Shown one piece after another: positions 50,659 through 58,034 of a stretch of DNA of 64,000 bases. How positions within the stretch are numbered: the first letter of the stretch is position 1; every line of letters starts with the position of its first letter. A program made the position numbers and the translations under genes. The notes under the pieces are model-generated. The model saw only the letters and a program-made list of their open reading frames with translations, searched no databases and had not been told where the DNA came from. The stretch covers positions 2,328-66,327 of the forward strand of contig DASYKV010000066.1 in the NCBI GenBank assembly GCA_035994965.1, read 5' to 3'. This stretch comes from Allosphingosinicella sp. (GTDB taxonomy: Bacteria; Pseudomonadota; Alphaproteobacteria; Sphingomonadales; Sphingomonadaceae).

Positions 50659-52686
50659 CTAGGCGAAGCGGATCTGGTCGAGCCCGAGGATCGGCGTGCG
50701 CGGCGCGGCGAGGCTCTCGATCCCCTCCTCGCCGATGGCGAGCGGATCGGCCTCGGCGAGGTTGCCGAAGGAGATTCCGCTCTTCGCCTCGATCGAGCGG
50801 ATCGAGACCTGGGTGGCGAGGCCGAGCTGCGGCGAGGTGAAGGCGCCGAACACGAACTCCTCTTCCGGCACCAGCGACTGCTCCTGGTTCATCTCATAGC
50901 CGGTCGCGGTGAGCTGCCCGGTCTCGTCATGGATGAAGGCGATGATCTTCCAGAAGGAGAGCGGGATCCTGACCCCGTACATGGTCGGATCGGCGTCGGT
51001 GAAATAGGGGCCGGTGAACACCGAGATGTTCATCTTGTCCTCGCGGGCATGCTCCAGCGCATAATCTTCGAGCGCCAGCCAGATCGGCGAGTTGAACGCC
51101 TGCATCTGCGGCGTGGTGTTGGTGACGTGCATCGAATCCTGGTTGCCGCGCATCGCGGCCGCGTCGTCGTCGCCCCAGGCCGGATCCTCGCGCCTCGTCA
51201 TATGGCCGCGGCTGAAGCGCGGCGGGCCGCCATAGCATTCGTTCATTATCTGCTGCGATTTCGGGATTCGCGGATCCCATTTCCAGCCGACCCGCTTGCT
51301 CTTCTTGGAGAGATTGCCGTTGATGTTGACCGCGCTGAAGAAGCACATCCGCCGCGGCTCGTTCATCACCACCGAATAATGCTGGTAGCGAAGCTCGGTC
51401 TCGGTCTTGCCATCGACCTCGAATTCGAGGATCTCGCCGGCGGCGCCCTCGACCTTCGGCAAGGGCACGTCGACCCCGAGAAAGTCCGGCCGGTAGCCGG
51501 TCCGGTCGCGATAATCCTCGACCCGCCCCTCCTCGCCCTCGATCTCGTCGACAAGGCCGTCGGCGGGCAGAAGCTGGGCCGGAGCTGGCGGCCGCACCGT
51601 CAGATCCACCGTTCCGGTCGCACCGGCGGTGGTGACGGTGATGGTCAGCGGGATGGTCAGGCTGCCAAGGACGTTGCCGCCCGCCTGCGCCTGCGCCGCG
51701 GCCGCCGGGCCGGCCGGGTCCGGGCGCGGGCTGGTTTCCGGGCGGACCCGGCCGGCGCGCACCATTGCGAGCCGGTTCGCGACCACGTCCGAGCGGACCG
51801 CATAATTGGTGGTCAGGAAGCTGCCGCTATTGTGCAGGCCGACCGCCTCGCCGCTGTCGAGATCGATTACCACCGATCCCGAATTGCCCCCGAGCGTCGT
51901 GCAATTGTGCAGGAGTCGCTCCGCCTCGACCTTGGTCACGCCGCCAGGCGCCAGCCGCTTCTTGTTGTAGACCTTGCCGTAGATCCGCTCCATCAAATCG
52001 GTTTCGGGGATCCGGCTGTCATAGGCCGGATAGCCGATTGCGGCGACGTTCTGGGTCACCGCCGGCCGCTTCGCCAGCTTGATCGGCTTGGCCAGCTTCT
52101 TGTCGCCCGCCGTCATTTCGATCTGGAAGAAAGCCAGATCGGGGCCCGGCGACGGCTCGATGTAGAGCGGCCGGACGAGCTTGAAGACGAGGGTGTTGGG
52201 ATTGTCGATCTCCTGGAGGAAATCGACGCCGGCGCCGATCGGGCCGTCATTGCCCATCTTGAAGGTGAAGCCGCCGCCGCCTTGGGCTGCGAATTCGTTG
52301 GCGACGTGGCGGTTGGTGACCAGGATCGACTCGTGGACCAGCCAGCCGGTGCCGACCCAGTCGATCCAGCTGCCCTTGAGCTCGATCCGCCCGACCGCCT
52401 TGATCGCCCGCTCGAGCTTGGGCTTGGCGCGCTCCAGCCGCTCGCGCCAGATCTGGCTGTCGACCGGATCGGCGAAGACGAGGCTCGCCACGTTTTCCTT
52501 GATCGCCAGCACCGGCCGCTCGCGGCGCATGACGATGCTCTCCATCGCCAGCGCCTCTTCGTCGCTGACCGCCGGCGCCAGGCTCTCCAGCACGTCGAGG
52601 CCTTCCTCGGCGAGCGCCGGATCGGCGCTCCGAATCTCGGCGTTGTGGCGCCGCAGGCGTTCGAGCTTGTCCTGAAGCGTACCCAT
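50659..52686 (-). CDS. Trypsin-like serine protease fused to a DNA/RNA non-specific endonuclease (NucA/EndoG family)
   Basis: Protease triad VTNRHV / PDLA / GGNSGS; nuclease SRGHMTRREDP, TNTTPQ...FN...W..LE; no signal peptide. Confidence 0.9.
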   Translation of the reverse strand: MGTLQDKLERLRRHNAEIRSADPALAEEGLDVLESLAPAVSDEEALAMESIVMRRERPVLAIKENVASLVFADPVDSQIWRERLERAKPKLERAIKAVGRIELKGSWIDWVGTGWLVHESILVTNRHVANEFAAQGGGGFTFKMGNDGPIGAGVDFLQEIDNPNTLVFKLVRPLYIEPSPGPDLAFFQIEMTAGDKKLAKPIKLAKRPAVTQNVAAIGYPAYDSRIPETDLMERIYGKVYNKKRLAPGGVTKVEAERLLHNCTTLGGNSGSVVIDLDSGEAVGLHNSGSFLTTNYAVRSDVVANRLAMVRAGRVRPETSPRPDPAGPAAAAQAQAGGNVLGSLTIPLTITVTTAGATGTVDLTVRPPAPAQLLPADGLVDEIEGEEGRVEDYRDRTGYRPDFLGVDVPLPKVEGAAGEILEFEVDGKTETELRYQHYSVVMNEPRRMCFFSAVNINGNLSKKSKRVGWKWDPRIPKSQQIMNECYGGPPRFSRGHMTRREDPAWGDDDAAAMRGNQDSMHVTNTTPQMQAFNSPIWLALEDYALEHAREDKMNISVFTGPYFTDADPTMYGVRIPLSFWKIIAFIHDETGQLTATGYEMNQEQSLVPEEEFVFGAFTSPQLGLATQVSIRSIEAKSGISFGNLAEADPLAIGEEGIESLAAPRTPILGLDQIRFA

Positions 52687-53090: not shown

Positions 53091-53154
53091 TGCAGCATGG
53101 CTATAGCCGGGAAGCCGGCTCCCGGTAAGCGTAAAGTTGCTCTAGAGCGTCCTC

Positions 53155-53910
53155 ATGTCCAAGGGCCGCGCCAAGCTGGAGATGTCGCAGGGGGTGAGCG
53201 TCTGGGTGCTCGATGCCCCGGACGGTTTCGGCGACGCCGATTTCCACGCCCATCACGCCATCCAGATCACCGCGAGCCTGACCGGCGCGCTCACCCTGAC
53301 GAGCGCGGACGAGACGCTGACCGCGCCGATCCTGGCCGTCGCCGCCGACGCGCGGCACAGGTTCGAAGCGCATGGCCTGCTCGCCTTCGTCTTCGTCGAG
53401 CCCGAGAGCCGCCTCGGCCGCGCGCTGACCGGGAGCCTGTTCCGCGGCCGCTCGCTGGTCGCAATCGACAGGCCGGACGTCGCCCGCCATCTGGAGCCGC
53501 TTCGCGCCACCTTCGATGCGCCGCCCGGCAAGGGCGCGCTGCTCGACGCCGGCCGGGCGGCGGCCGAGGCGCTGGCGCCGGGCCTGCAAGCCCCGCTGCC
53601 GGACCCGCGCATCCAGCGCATCATCGAGCATGCCGCTTCCCACCTCGAAGAACCGCTCAGCCTCGCCAGCGCGTCGGCCGGAGTCCATCTCTCGCCGAGC
53701 CGCCTCAGGCATTTGTTCGTCGAGCAGACCGGCCTGGCCTTCAAAACCTATCTGCTCTGGCTTCGGCTGGTCAGCGCGGTGACGGTCTATTCGGAAGGCA
53801 AGTCGCTCACCGAGGCGGCGCATGCGGCTGGCTTTTCCGATTCGGCGCATTTCAGCAGGATCTTCAAGCGCACCTTCGGATTGCCGGCGACGACGCTGAC
53901 GCGATTATAG
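53155..53910 (+). CDS. AraC family transcriptional regulator
   Basis: Cupin-like HAHHA N-terminus; LSPSRLRHLF and AGFSDSAHFSRIFKRTFG HTH. Confidence 0.93.
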   Translation: MSKGRAKLEMSQGVSVWVLDAPDGFGDADFHAHHAIQITASLTGALTLTSADETLTAPILAVAADARHRFEAHGLLAFVFVEPESRLGRALTGSLFRGRSLVAIDRPDVARHLEPLRATFDAPPGKGALLDAGRAAAEALAPGLQAPLPDPRIQRIIEHAASHLEEPLSLASASAGVHLSPSRLRHLFVEQTGLAFKTYLLWLRLVSAVTVYSEGKSLTEAAHAAGFSDSAHFSRIFKRTFGLPATTLTRL

Positions 53911-53979
53911 CCCTTGCGTTCAAGCGTCCGGCCGCGGGCGGCCCTATCCGCTCCTCACCAACCCAAGAGGAGAAAGACC

Positions 53980-54072
53980 ATGACTGCCCAGACCAAACGG
54001 AATGACCGCTGCAAGCCCTCCTGCCCCTGCGTGAACTGCAAGTGCGGGCCGAACTGCCGCTGCGGCAAGTGA
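53980..54072 (+). CDS. Metallothionein-like 30-aa Cys-rich micropeptide (absent from the ORF track)
   Basis: GAGGAG RBS; MTAQTKRNDRCKPSCPCVNCKCGPNCRCGK*; hairpin directly downstream. Confidence 0.75.
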   Translation: MTAQTKRNDRCKPSCPCVNCKCGPNCRCGK

Positions 54073-54081
54073 CCTTCGAAA

Positions 54082-54114
54082 AGCGGCGAGGGCGGTGTCG
54101 CCGCCCTTGCCGCT
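54082..54114. terminator. Hairpin between the micropeptide gene and the convergent gene
   Basis: agcggcgagggcgg-tgtcg-ccgcccttgccgct. Confidence 0.65.
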
Positions 54115-54119
54115 CGAGG

Positions 54120-54620
54120 TCACGGCCGTTCGCGCAGCAGCGCCGAGAGCGTCCAACCCTCGGCGCCGCCATGAACGGCGTCGTCGAGATACCAGCGGCT
54201 GCCGACGCGGACGAACAGGAAGCGCACTTCCTCGTGCGCGTCGTAATTGTCGAAGCGGGCGACGATCGTCCGCCGGTCGCGGCCGCCAGGCCGCTGGCTC
54301 AGCCGCACGTTGGCGATGCGGTAATCCTGGGCATTGGTCCACCAGTCGAAATCGAGCGACCCGACCAGGTCGCCGCCGCTCAGGTCGCGGCCATAGGCGG
54401 CGAAGAGGGCGCGCAGCCGCGGGCTGTAGGCGTAGCTCTGATCGGGCGGCGGCGCGTCCGGATTGGCTTGGTAGCGCGCATAAGTGGCGGCGACGAAGGC
54501 GCGCGGGTCGGTGATGCCGGTCCGGGGAATGCGCTGGACGGCGGGGAAATCCTCGATGTCGACCCGGTCCGTTTGTGCCGACACAGCGCCCAGCGCCAGG
54601 AACATGGCCAACAGGTTCAT
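54120..54620 (-). CDS. Secreted DUF3828/YbjP-like protein
   Basis: Signal peptide; DPRAFVAATY..Y, LDFDWW.NAQD and WYLDD motifs. Confidence 0.7.
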   Translation of the reverse strand: MNLLAMFLALGAVSAQTDRVDIEDFPAVQRIPRTGITDPRAFVAATYARYQANPDAPPPDQSYAYSPRLRALFAAYGRDLSGGDLVGSLDFDWWTNAQDYRIANVRLSQRPGGRDRRTIVARFDNYDAHEEVRFLFVRVGSRWYLDDAVHGGAEGWTLSALLRERP

Positions 54621-55432: not shown

Positions 55433-57121
55433 TTACCCTGCCTCAACCGCCTGCGTCGCCACCTGTTCCGGCGCCAGCGCCTTGTCGGCGAAACAGGCGT
55501 GGAGGAGCGCGACGACGCGGGCGCCGTCGCCGACCGCGGCCGCCACCCTTTTGACCGAGCCCGCGCGCACGTCGCCGACCGCGAACACGCCGCGCCGGCT
55601 GGTTTCGAGCGACGCCCGCCCCTCGCCCGCCTCCGCGCCGGTGAGGACGAAGCCGCGCGCGTCGAGCTTGAGGCCCGACGCGGCCAGCCAGTCGGTATTG
55701 GGATCGGCGCCGATGAAGGAGAAGAGGTGGGATATCGGCCGCCGAGTCTCCTCGCCCGAAGCGAGGCCGCGCCACCGCACCGCCTCGAGCATGCCGTCCT
55801 TGCCCTCCAGCGCCGTCACCTCGACGCCGGTCACCACCTCGACATTGGAAAGGCCCAGGATGCGCTCGACCAGATAGGCGGACATGGTGGCGGCGAGCGG
55901 CTTCCTGACCAGCAGCGTCACCTTGCCGGCATGGCCGGCGAGGAAGACCACCGCCTGGCCGGCCGAATTGCCGCCGCCGACCAGGGCGACCTCCTGGCGC
56001 GCGCAGAGGTTCGCCTCGAGCGGCGAGGCCCAATAATGGACGGCGCCGCCCTCGAACTCGTCGAGCCCGGGGACGTCGAGCCGCCGGTAGCGGGCGCCGG
56101 TCGCGATCACCGCGGCGCGCGCCTTGATCCGCTCGCCATTGGCGAGCTGGAGGTGGAACGGGTCCATTCCGCATTCGAGCTTCACCGCCTCGTCGGGTAT
56201 GGCCATCTCGACGCCGAATTTCTGCGCCTGGCTGAACGCCCGGCCCATCAAGGCCATGCCCGAAATGCCGGTCGGGAAGCCGAGATAATTCTCGATCCTG
56301 GCCGAGGCGCCGGCCTGCCCGCCGAACGCCCGGCAATCGAGCGCGAGCACGGAAAGCCCCTCCGATCCCGCATAGACCGAGGTGGCGAGCCCGGCCGGTC
56401 CGGCGCCGATCACGACCACGTCGAACAAGCGGTCCGGGTCGATCGGCCCGACCAGGCCGATGCAGCGCGCAAGCGCATTCTCCTGCGGATTCTTGAGCAG
56501 CTGCCCGCTTGGGCAGAGCACGATCGGCAATTCCTCGGGCTCGACCCTGAACCGTTCGATCAGGGCGCGGGCGGCCGAGTCGCTGTCCGGATCGAGGCGC
56601 TGATAGGGGTGGCCGTTGCGGCTGAGGAAATTGACCAGCCGGAGCACGTCGGCATCATGATCGTGGCCGACGATCACTGGCCCGCCACCGCCCGTCTCGA
56701 TCAGCCCAACGCGCCTCAGGATCAGCGCCCGCATGATCCGCTCGCCCAATTCCGCCTCGGCGATCAGCAAGGCGCGCAGCCGCTCGGGCGGGATCTCGAC
56801 CGCCTCGCCGTCGCTCAGCACCTCGGCGTCGACCAGGGACGGCCGCCCGGACAATTGCGCGAGCTCGCCCATGAACGAGCCGGCCTTGTGGGTCACGATC
56901 GCCACCTTGCCGCCGCCCTCGACGCGCTGGCTGATCTCCACCTCGCCGGCCAGGATCAGCACCAGCCCGTGCCCGGTCTCGCCGGCCCGGGCCAGAAACT
57001 CGCCGGCGCGGAAATGCCGTGGCGTCCCGAACCGCTTCAGCCGCGCCAATTCGGCCGGGGTCAGCGCCGGAAACATCTGCGCCCCGCGCGTGTCGATGAT
57101 CGTCTGCGTCGGCTCGGCCAT
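55433..57121 (-). CDS. cNMP-binding domain fused to a thioredoxin-reductase-like FAD oxidoreductase
   Basis: FMGELAQLSGRP (cNMP), VIGAGPAGL, VGGGNSAGQA and GVFAVGDVR motifs. Confidence 0.9.
   Translation of the reverse strand: MAEPTQTIIDTRGAQMFPALTPAELARLKRFGTPRHFRAGEFLARAGETGHGLVLILAGEVEISQRVEGGGKVAIVTHKAGSFMGELAQLSGRPSLVDAEVLSDGEAVEIPPERLRALLIAEAELGERIMRALILRRVGLIETGGGGPVIVGHDHDADVLRLVNFLSRNGHPYQRLDPDSDSAARALIERFRVEPEELPIVLCPSGQLLKNPQENALARCIGLVGPIDPDRLFDVVVIGAGPAGLATSVYAGSEGLSVLALDCRAFGGQAGASARIENYLGFPTGISGMALMGRAFSQAQKFGVEMAIPDEAVKLECGMDPFHLQLANGERIKARAAVIATGARYRRLDVPGLDEFEGGAVHYWASPLEANLCARQEVALVGGGNSAGQAVVFLAGHAGKVTLLVRKPLAATMSAYLVERILGLSNVEVVTGVEVTALEGKDGMLEAVRWRGLASGEETRRPISHLFSFIGADPNTDWLAASGLKLDARGFVLTGAEAGEGRASLETSRRGVFAVGDVRAGSVKRVAAAVGDGARVVALLHACFADKALAPEQVATQAVEAG
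55445..55469 (-). promoter_or_regulatory. EcfG/sigmaT-type promoter for DUF2171, inside the upstream CDS
   Basis: GGAAC-N16-GGTT on the minus strand. Confidence 0.65.
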
Positions 57122-57248
57122 GGCGATTCCTTGCGGCGTGTCGCGGGAATTAGGGCAGAATGGCGGGCAAGGCCAACAGGGATGGGCCGGCCGGGTTGAA
57201 TTCCGGCGGCTTCTTGTCGATGCTGGGGGCTCAAAGGGGGCCTCGAAT

Positions 57249-58034
57249 ATGCGCCTGATCGCCATCCTGCTCGCCTTCTGCCTCGCCGCGCCGGCGCTCG
57301 CGCAGACGCCCGAGGAGAGCGCGCGCATCGCCTGGGTGGTGCAACGCGGCCGCGCGCTCTTCGAGATCGACCGCGCCGCCTGGGTCACCACCGACGACCT
57401 GAGGGAACGGGTCGGCGACCTCGGCCGCGCCGGCGTGCGCGGCTGGACCGTGGAGCGCGACGGTGCCGGCTACCGCGTCGCCTATTATACCGGCGAGGGC
57501 GACGCTCGCGCAGTCCTCTATCGCGCCCGTGTCGAGAACAACCGGGTGGCCTCGGCCGAGCTGATCCCGGCCGGCGCGCGGCCGTCCTTGACCGAGTTGC
57601 AGCGGCGGATCGCCGATGCGCGCGGCGCGGCTGCCCATCTCGGGCGCCGGTCGTGCACGGGACCGGGCTTCAACGTGGCGGCGATCCCACCCGAGCGGCC
57701 CGACGGACCGCTGGACCTCTATCTGCTGACCCCGCAGGTGCGCGAGGCCGTCTATCCGGCCGGCGGCCATTATCTCGCGACCCTGGCGCCGGGCGGCGAG
57801 ATCGTCGCTCAGCGCGCCTTCACCAACAGCTGCATCGAGCTCACGACCGCGGTCGAGAATGGGAACACGCCCGCGGCCCTCATGGTCACCCATTTGCTCG
57901 ACAAGGTGCCGACCGAGATTCACGTCTTCCTGTCGATCTGGACGGGCCTTCCCATCTATGTCGGCACCGCCGATCCGCAGCGCGTCTGGGAAGTGACCGG
58001 CGAGCGCATCAGCCTCGTCGATTCAAGCAACTGA
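57249..58034 (+). CDS. Secreted hypothetical protein
   Basis: MRLIAILLAFCLAAPALAQ signal peptide; host-like codon usage. Confidence 0.78.
   Translation: MRLIAILLAFCLAAPALAQTPEESARIAWVVQRGRALFEIDRAAWVTTDDLRERVGDLGRAGVRGWTVERDGAGYRVAYYTGEGDARAVLYRARVENNRVASAELIPAGARPSLTELQRRIADARGAAAHLGRRSCTGPGFNVAAIPPERPDGPLDLYLLTPQVREAVYPAGGHYLATLAPGGEIVAQRAFTNSCIELTTAVENGNTPAALMVTHLLDKVPTEIHVFLSIWTGLPIYVGTADPQRVWEVTGERISLVDSSN

Follow-up and report, generated by a model that had tools for sequence, protein, structure and literature searches.

A cysteine-dense 30-residue peptide encoded beside a cupin-AraC regulator in sphingomonads is a candidate minimal bacterial metallothionein

What does a reading frame of 30 codons encode when seven of those codons specify cysteine and the gene next to it encodes an AraC-family regulator? 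This question is raised by a locus in Allosphingosinicella sp. (family Sphingomonadaceae; contig DASYKV010000066.1), of which we analysed a stretch of 64,000 nucleotides (positions 2,328 to 66,327 of the forward strand), referred to here as the window. The open reading frame (ORF) lies on the + strand, with an ATG at 53980 and a TGA at 54070-54072 (53980-54072 including the stop), and its predicted product is MTAQTKRNDRCKPSCPCVNCKCGPNCRCGK. Cysteine occupies residues 11, 15, 17, 20, 22, 26 and 28, which amounts to 23% of the residues and makes three CxC pairs plus one further cysteine; His, Phe, Tyr and Trp are absent from the peptide, whose N-terminus is hydrophilic and, judged by its sequence, free of a signal peptide. 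A Shine-Dalgarno (SD) element, GAGGAG, lies at 53967-53972, 7 nt 5′ of the ATG. An initial annotation, made from the DNA letters alone, had described this 30-residue ORF with its ribosome-binding site, its cysteine layout devoid of aromatic residues and His, the hairpin behind it and the upstream AraC gene, and had proposed a new, minimal metallothionein under AraC control. All of these features are present in the sequence as described, and the peptide is indeed unannotated, its exact sequence being absent from a collection of ~15 billion predicted proteins.

We then sought relatives of the peptide, a check that the initial annotation had proposed. Among 1.84 billion representative proteins, four short proteins (29-44 aa), unnamed or hypothetical, have the same cysteine pattern. 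Six-frame searches of whole genomes located the peptide in five genomes besides the window's own: a syntenic copy, 83% identical, is present in another species of the genus (G019), and more distant copies occur in four other genera of the family (G297, G409, G925 and G961). When the AraC protein was used as bait in metagenome contigs, 16 further peptide loci were recovered. The resulting set comprises 27 loci, all of distinct DNA, from 6 genomes and 21 metagenome or assembly contigs.

In every one of these 27 loci the ORF is 28-34 codons long, begins with ATG (GTG in one case) 5-9 nt past a GGAG-type SD, and stops 0-6 codons beyond the last cysteine. All seven cysteines are invariant across the aligned peptides (26 sequences), and their spacing is C-x3-C-x-C-x2-C-x-C-x3-C-x-C in all loci except L144, which has an x4 variant. 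Conserved residues other than cysteine include the Arg preceding Cys11 and Gly23, the glycine that follows the fifth cysteine and is kept in 26 of the 27 loci; a few family members have an N-terminal Phe or one His. The cysteine codons, invariant in position in the 27 distinct DNAs, are TGC throughout, bar two synonymous TGT. Synonymous variation is found at other residues, with all four GGN codons used for Gly23 and TCC, TCG and AGC used for Ser, and the pooled pN/pS of 0.58 in the peptide frame is the lowest of the six frames. Because the ORF recurs in 27 loci with invariant cysteine codons, a conserved SD and start, a terminator hairpin (described below) and synonymous codon changes, the sequences indicate a genuine gene of the translated type that is constrained at the protein level and constitutes a transcription unit of its own.

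The two closest genome copies can be compared base by base. Between G000 and G019, a cysteine-rich core of 64 nt (window 54010-54073, compared with L002) has zero substitutions, not even synonymous ones, and the flanks are ~7% different. Within the ORF, the 8 differences are confined to 5 non-Cys codons, and 7 of these differences alter the amino acid.

Linkage to the AraC gene, another check suggested by the initial annotation, holds in both directions. A tblastn search with the window AraC protein found an orthologue at 27 of 27 peptide loci; in reverse, the peptide is present at 16 of 16 metagenome AraC loci whose identity is 58% or more and whose DNA reaches far enough downstream. In 24 of the 27 loci the AraC gene immediately precedes the peptide gene in the same orientation, its stop and the peptide ATG being ~70-77 nt apart (69 nt for the window copy), and it is downstream and convergent in the other three (L132, L134 and L140, the last from G409). 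This 7-Cys pattern occurs in 0 of 58 more distant AraC-family loci; L162, with 45% AraC identity, has a divergent 8-Cys peptide. When the ORFs flanking 26 loci were clustered, the AraC gene, together with its shadow frames, was the sole recurrent neighbour, the others being common only to near-identical contigs, and no maturase, protease, exporter or transporter recurred across the flanks. Since AraC is the only recurrent neighbour, the conserved unit is exactly two genes, AraC and peptide.

Between the two genes lies a 15-bp box, AGCCCTTGCGTTCAA (53909-53923, + strand), a candidate AraC operator whose first two bases are the last two of the AraC stop codon. The consensus of this box in the aligned upstream regions is (T)AGCC[GC][TC]TnC[GA]TTCAA. 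It is conserved in 27 of 27 loci, including L132, L134 and L140, and because it is kept where AraC is not upstream, it is not merely the 3′ end of the AraC gene. Each of the six genomes with the module contains the degenerate 15-mer AGCCSYTNCRTTCAA exactly once, always at the peptide gene; the reversed box, used as a control, gave 0 matches, and the chance expectation is estimated at ~0.2 per genome. Across 1.3 Mb of fetched loci, the box occurs only beside AraC genes of this clade. No second AraC half-site was found upstream of the box in the loci that lack an upstream AraC gene.

A -10-like element, CTATCC (53944-53949, + strand), follows 20 nt past the box; most loci have a TAT here, occasionally replaced by TAG or TAA, and the spacer of ~20-23 nt between box and element is not conserved. 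A consensus scan found no sigma-70 promoter, which is compatible with a promoter that depends on an activator. In class II activation by AraC proteins of the MarA/SoxS type, one asymmetric box directly adjoins the -35 region of a weak promoter. Because the box and promoter at this locus match that layout, we infer that AraC activates the peptide gene.

Two predicted RNA structures frame the ORF. In the first, a 5′ untranslated region (UTR) hairpin at 53951-53972 (+ strand), CTCCTC (53951-53956) would pair with the SD, and the fold of the window sequence, at -8.6 kcal/mol, has every SD base paired. For 18 of the 27 5′ UTRs, most of the SD is paired in the minimum-energy fold (mean z -1.3), and in the aligned loci the CU-rich block is conserved and the surrounding spacer is not. 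On this modest evidence, the hairpin may be a translational brake or a stabilising 5′ structure. The second is a GC-rich hairpin overlapping the stop codon (54069-54123, assigned to neither strand), with a folding energy of -45 kcal/mol and a z of -6.7 against dinucleotide shuffles. It has no U-tract on the + strand, and no canonical U-tract terminator was detected there; it probably terminates both the peptide gene and a convergent gene ending at 54120. Past the stop, a strong hairpin of unrelated sequence is present in 22 of the 27 loci (z < -2, mean -3.5), followed in several by T-runs.

The regulator (53155-53910, + strand; 251 aa) consists of an N-terminal cupin domain and two C-terminal helix-turn-helix (HTH) motifs. 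This C-terminal double HTH, matched by HTH_18 (PF12833, 63.4 bits against a cut-off of 33.6, E 2.4e-17) and HTH_AraC (PF00165, 40.5 bits against 26.6), places it in the AraC/XylS family; among PDB sequences, its matches are confined to the HTH domain (the DNA-binding domains of AraC, SoxS and MarA). The initial annotation had pointed to an HAHH in the cupin domain. These residues, 31-34, belong to a larger invariant motif, His-x-His-His-x2-Gln, encoded at 53245-53265 (+ strand) as H31-A-H33-H34-A-I-Q37. Cupin motif 1 has the form G-x5-H-x-H-x3,4-E-x6-G. The invariant H31-x-H33-x3-Q37-x6-G44 fits this form with Gln in place of Glu, and H68 stands at the position expected for the motif-2 His. 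Invariant N-domain residues among 44 homologues (65-95% identity) include H31, H33, H34, Q37, D65, H68, E82, P83 and E84. The HxHH..Q motif is also kept in the loci from other genera and in homologues of 35-41% identity, and the regulator lacks conserved cysteines for redox sensing. An AlphaFold2 model built with the 44 homologues (mean pLDDT 85.9) has an N-terminal beta-barrel followed by a helical double-HTH domain. The best whole-chain Foldseek matches of the model are ToxT, Rns and CsvR, and those of its N-domain include many small cupins, among them the metal-containing TM1459. The modelled N-domain would thus combine the beta-barrel of a metal cupin with His, Glu and Gln at the motif-1 and motif-2 positions, and the invariant His/Gln/Glu set is compatible with a cupin metal site.

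More distant homologues of the regulator (35-45% identity) keep the HxHH..Q / FVEPE signature together with the same box, and in several of them the box stands 5′ of a longer cysteine-rich peptide. In L162, this peptide has 48 aa and 8 Cys (...CRCGPDCRCGDAC...). The box in G1578 (a different family within the phylum; AraC N-domain 35% identical) precedes a gene for a 51-aa, 11-Cys peptide, from which the AraC gene is divergent. On pMTS1 of Cupriavidus sp. P-10 (39% AraC identity), the box and an SD precede a 63-aa, 14-Cys peptide. A CxCGPxCxCG core is common to the 8-, 11- and 14-Cys peptides, and the same C-x-C-G-P-x-C-x-C-G core unites CTCGPQCQCG of the Cupriavidus peptide with CKCGPNCRCG of the window peptide. 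None of the three longer peptides has a name in public collections.

The Cupriavidus locus (L235/L237, NZ_AP025172.1 ~231244-238900) has the order AraC homologue, box and 14-Cys peptide, followed on the same strand as the peptide by a small His-rich secreted protein, an outer-membrane efflux protein (OEP, PF02321), a 190-aa protein, a CusB/HlyD-type adaptor (membrane-fusion) and an RND pump, which passes the NCBI curated cut-off for the CusA/CzcA family of heavy-metal efflux pumps (TIGR00914, 759 bits against 701). The TM4 motif of this pump is AIGELVDDAVVDVEN. The pMTS1 record is without annotation in PLSDB, and it contains a second AraC match. The box takes the form AGCCGTTTCGTTCAA beside 40%-identical AraC homologues in G1611 (L233 ~980-1490, - strand) and on Sinorhizobium fredii pSF25509b (L236, NZ_CP029452.1; ~3350 on the - strand and 4324 on the + strand). 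In these two loci, it precedes genes for DUF3703, YtkA-like and di-haem cytochrome c peroxidase proteins and for a DUF4386 membrane protein, which are possible further regulon members of this regulator clade. The recurrence of the same sensor and operator with varied cysteine-rich peptides, and in one instance with a heavy-metal efflux cluster, is the strongest argument, still a contextual one, that the window peptide may have a metal-related role.

How does the peptide compare with the metallothioneins already described? The operational definition of a metallothionein asks for a size below ~10 kDa, a composition rich in cysteines of CxC or CxxC type with few or no aromatic residues or His, and metal ions bound in thiolate clusters. 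With a length of 30 aa (28-34 aa among its relatives in the aligned set), cysteine at 7 of 30 positions and three CxC pairs, the peptide is by its predicted sequence a metallothionein in this compositional sense, and it stands outside every described family. The window peptide has no Pfam or NCBIfam match. A Pfam scan of 26 family members returned sporadic weak matches only, all to metallothionein families: Metallothio_5 (PF02067) for one member (E 4.7e-4), Metallothio_Euk (PF12749) for three (best E 0.06) and Metallothio_2 (PF01439) for one (E 4.8), so that no eukaryotic family is matched consistently. The SmtA/BmtA family (PF02069) gave no match at E up to 10 for any of the 26 members, and a profile search of PDB sequences with the peptide family returned nothing. 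We found no description of the peptide family or of AraC-controlled metallothioneins in the literature searched, whose coverage left out subscription journals. The peptide is most likely a very small, undescribed bacterial metallothionein.

These observations can be assembled into a full explanation of the module, a stand-alone, AraC-activated thionein, toward which we lean with some caution. The window segment 53155-54123 would be a self-contained two-gene module, in which the cupin-AraC activator binds the lone 15-bp box located immediately 5′ of the -35 of a weak promoter. The promoter activated in this way would drive a monocistronic gene for a 30-residue cytoplasmic peptide, ended by its own terminator hairpin, and the anti-SD/SD hairpin would possibly brake its translation. 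The seven cysteines would gather metal ions of soft or borderline character, for example Cu(I), Zn(II) or Cd(II), into a single thiolate cluster, in the way of one-domain metallothioneins, of which the fungal 7-Cys Cu-thioneins and the animal metallothionein (MT) beta-domain are examples. The inducing signal would perhaps be metal bound in the AraC cupin. Of the minimal AraC-controlled metallothionein put forward in the initial annotation, the homologues with conserved cysteines and the AraC linkage have thus been borne out, and the metal function is suggested by composition and context.

Several findings weigh against this explanation. The pN/pS of the peptide frame is only moderate, as would be expected if the cysteine scaffold alone is constrained. 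No known metallothionein family is matched at its curated threshold. Metal transporter and resistance genes are not among the recurrent neighbours of the module in the sphingomonad loci, so that the link to metals comes from the distant relatives and from composition. The module is also rare and patchy: it was found in 2 of 25 sampled genomes of the genus, in 4 of 401 genomes of the family and 3 of 401 of the order, and nowhere else in a 401-genome sample of the class, where weak matches were inspected and rejected as chance. Finally, a Cu(I) sensor with a His3/Gln cupin site would be out of the ordinary, and the cupin AraC proteins ToxT and Rns, structural relatives of the regulator, bind fatty acids and not metals.

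The distant relatives allow a broader proposal, which we offer more tentatively than the explanation of the window module. The cupin-AraC clade may comprise unrecognised metal-sensing activators with a His3/Gln(Glu) cupin site that act through the box AGCCGTTnCGTTCAA and, in Alpha- and Betaproteobacteria alike, induce gene-encoded thioneins 28-63 residues long. Among ribosomally made bacterial MTs, the 30-aa form of sphingomonads would then be one of the smallest, and the system as a whole would have gone unseen because gene callers skip such peptide genes.

Other explanations of the peptide draw on the same data. Its cysteines could act as thiols in bulk, making it a sacrificial, inducible scavenger of oxidants, electrophiles, chromate or reactive chlorine, or a cysteine or sulfur reserve, with AraC sensing an organic or redox signal. 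Redox and detoxification genes do lie near some copies (glyoxalase and OsmC in L131, ChrA in L132 and L134, and a cyclic-nucleotide-binding thioredoxin-reductase-like gene in the window), oxidant-sensing members of the AraC family exist (RclR), and structural relatives of the regulator bind organic ligands. However, these neighbours are not recurrent, and the invariance of the exact cysteine spacing and of the glycine suggests a defined cluster geometry over bulk thiol. Further, the conserved residues of AraC are His, Gln and Glu and not Cys, and one relative is located in a heavy-metal efflux cluster; we therefore regard a thiol buffer as unlikely. We consider it distinctly improbable that the peptide instead serves mainly the regulator, as a metallochaperone or feedback element giving metal to the AraC cupin or stripping it and thereby adjusting its own expression, with no bulk storage. 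The strict one-to-one coupling of the two genes, and a box that occurs once per genome and so makes the peptide seemingly the regulator's only target, would suit such a partner, but in distant relatives the box precedes other genes (those for DUF3703, YtkA-like, di-haem peroxidase and DUF4386 proteins) and the peptide is not obligatory there.

The thionein explanation can be set against three readings of the ORF itself. A short, cysteine-rich product with a variable N-terminal stretch as a possible leader could be the precursor of a modified or secreted disulfide-rich peptide (a ribosomally synthesised and post-translationally modified peptide (RiPP), a signal or a bacteriocin), with its processing enzymes encoded elsewhere. 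The initial annotation had already thought a RiPP less likely, for lack of maturation enzymes nearby, and the clustering of the 26 loci, in which no such enzyme recurs, agrees with it. The hydrophilic N-terminus without a signal peptide, a conserved core that reaches the C-terminus with thionein-typical CxC motifs, and the metal-efflux context of the relatives likewise argue against a precursor, which leaves this reading with very little probability. A short ORF rich in cysteine codons directly before a strong hairpin also recalls the mycobacterial polycysteine leader ORFs, and might be a cysteine-sensing leader peptide that attenuates via that hairpin. By contrast with an attenuator, the following gene points toward the ORF in the window, G019, G297, L131 and L132, and therefore there is nothing downstream for a leader to regulate; with Gly23, the Arg before Cys11 and the exact spacing conserved, and with no cysteine-metabolism genes nearby, the leader reading is largely refuted and its remaining likelihood is slight. 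Slighter still is the chance that the ORF is an accidental frame in GC-rich DNA whose conservation acts at the DNA or RNA level, as the unsubstituted core shared by G000 and G019 and an antisense -1 frame open in all loci might be taken to mean. An open antisense frame is expected in high-GC DNA, no Rfam family matches at the ORF, and over the 27 loci the DNA diverges freely, yet the cysteines, glycine, start, SD and stop position are kept with synonymous changes.

The genes around the module in the window are not metal-related. A 675-aa fusion of a trypsin-like peptidase and a DNA/RNA non-specific endonuclease (Pfam Trypsin_2 and Endonuclease_NS) lies at 50659-52686 (- strand), the small gene that ends at 54120, convergent on the hairpin, is DUF3828-like, and the cyclic-nucleotide-binding gene mentioned above encodes a 652-aa protein with a thioredoxin-reductase-like pyridine-nucleotide disulfide oxidoreductase domain at 55433-57391 (- strand). 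In one lineage, represented by L132 (870-2048, - strand) and L134, the peptide gene is divergent from the chromate transporter (ChrA) gene, with AraC convergent downstream and the box kept. Just 5′ of the window AraC gene, a weak match to the Rfam chrB-b motif (53107-53169, + strand; 23.2 bits against a gathering threshold of 36.5, E 0.04) was treated as chance; it does not recur in 17 related loci.

Judged by the source names of close AraC homologues, Allosphingosinicella among them, the lineage belongs to Sphingomonadales. Directly 5′ of the AraC gene, a tRNA gene is found in L131 (2912-2984, + strand), and a tRNA-like, partial match to the tmRNA model in L144 (1414-1489, + strand). These elements may be insertion sites of a mobile two-gene cassette, which fits the patchy distribution.

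A scan of genome contigs with a 7 x TGY pattern was dominated by poly-Cys simple repeats; the outlying cysteine-rich ORFs among the matches listed were those in L113 and L076. The first (L113 834-926, - strand; G1098:C1:808837-808926), in the uncultured Bacteroidetes metagenome-assembled genome (MAG) CAVUHS010000001.1, is a 30-aa ORF, MKMLIQNSNCQTKCNCSVCLCGENCNCGNA, with identical seven-Cys spacing, followed by a hairpin and then by a gene for a 123-aa Cu-oxidase_2 protein (multicopper oxidase C-terminal domain) with a His-rich tail. The 6 kb around it contain no AraC gene, a search of 201 genomes of its order found no relative, and this look-alike was not used as evidence. The second (L076 5502-5606, + strand), in the Pseudomonadota MAG CAZKLV010000002.1 (41% GC), is a 34-aa ORF, MNTYEKNEKTCEICGCECECKGCDCECGCNCGCE, with 13 Cys and a strong SD, ~180 nt past dnaK; this micropeptide is distinct from the 7-Cys peptide of the window.

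If the thionein explanation is right, the peptide would represent a further family of bacterial metallothioneins, whose members are half as large as those known and consistently escape annotation: only 4 clusters were found among 1.8 billion representative proteins, as against its presence at all 16 metagenome loci with the partner regulator. It would also make an AraC-type regulator a possible metal sensor; to our knowledge, the AraC family is not counted among the classical bacterial metalloregulators. With one regulator, one operator and one 93-nt gene, the module is compact and should be simple to reconstruct as a reporter, and the peptide is within reach of chemical synthesis, so that the hypothesis is directly testable.

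Several known systems resemble parts of this module. On the side of regulation, ToxT, Rns and CsvR share with the AraC protein a cupin, a double HTH and a length of ~250 aa, and are its best whole-chain structural matches; their cupin pocket, however, accommodates fatty acids, the genes under their control are virulence genes, and their identity to it is only 10-14%. The invariant His/His/His/Gln/His/Glu set distinguishes the window regulator clade from all three. The class II promoters of MarA, SoxS and Rob likewise have a single asymmetric box of ~15-20 bp beside or over the -35 of a weak promoter, but their box sequence is different, the window regulator has a sensor domain, and the placement of its box relative to the start site is a predicted one.

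On the side of the peptide, bacterial metallothioneins are thought to be rare and to fall into few families, namely SmtA/BmtA, MymT and Pseudomonas forms (PMC13578184). As in SmtA/BmtA, which are under SmtB/ArsR-type or Zur regulators, a gene for a cysteine-rich, putatively metal-binding protein is paired with a gene for a dedicated regulator. SmtA differs in its ~56 aa, its use of both Cys and His and its zinc-finger-like fold, compared with 30 aa and no His in the window peptide, and its regulator is a repressor of the ArsR/SmtB type, whereas that of the window is a cupin-AraC protein and probably an activator. MymT, the 53-aa Cu(I) MT of Mycobacterium tuberculosis in the RicR/CsoR regulon, is similarly small, cysteine-rich, inducible and long overlooked by gene callers; compared by description and not by sequence, it is longer, has another cysteine pattern, comes from another phylum and answers to a CsoR-type repressor.

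The closest likeness in size lies outside bacteria. The Neurospora crassa MT (~25 aa) and the beta-domain of animal MTs are, like the window peptide, single domains of 25-30 residues with seven cysteines, mostly in CxC pairs, and without aromatic residues or His, and the spacing C-x3-C-x-C-x2-C-x-C is also found in the mammalian metallothionein beta-domain. The initial annotation had noted a resemblance to fungal Cu-thioneins, which stands for size and cysteine number but extends neither to a family-level sequence match nor to the overall cysteine pattern, the fungal one being CxC-x5-CxC-x3-CxC-x2-C. Further, the fungal and animal genes are under metal-responsive transcription factors, whereas the window peptide is bacterial and is paired with an AraC-type regulator. 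At such a length, the likeness of the peptide to these eukaryotic thioneins may be a case of convergence.

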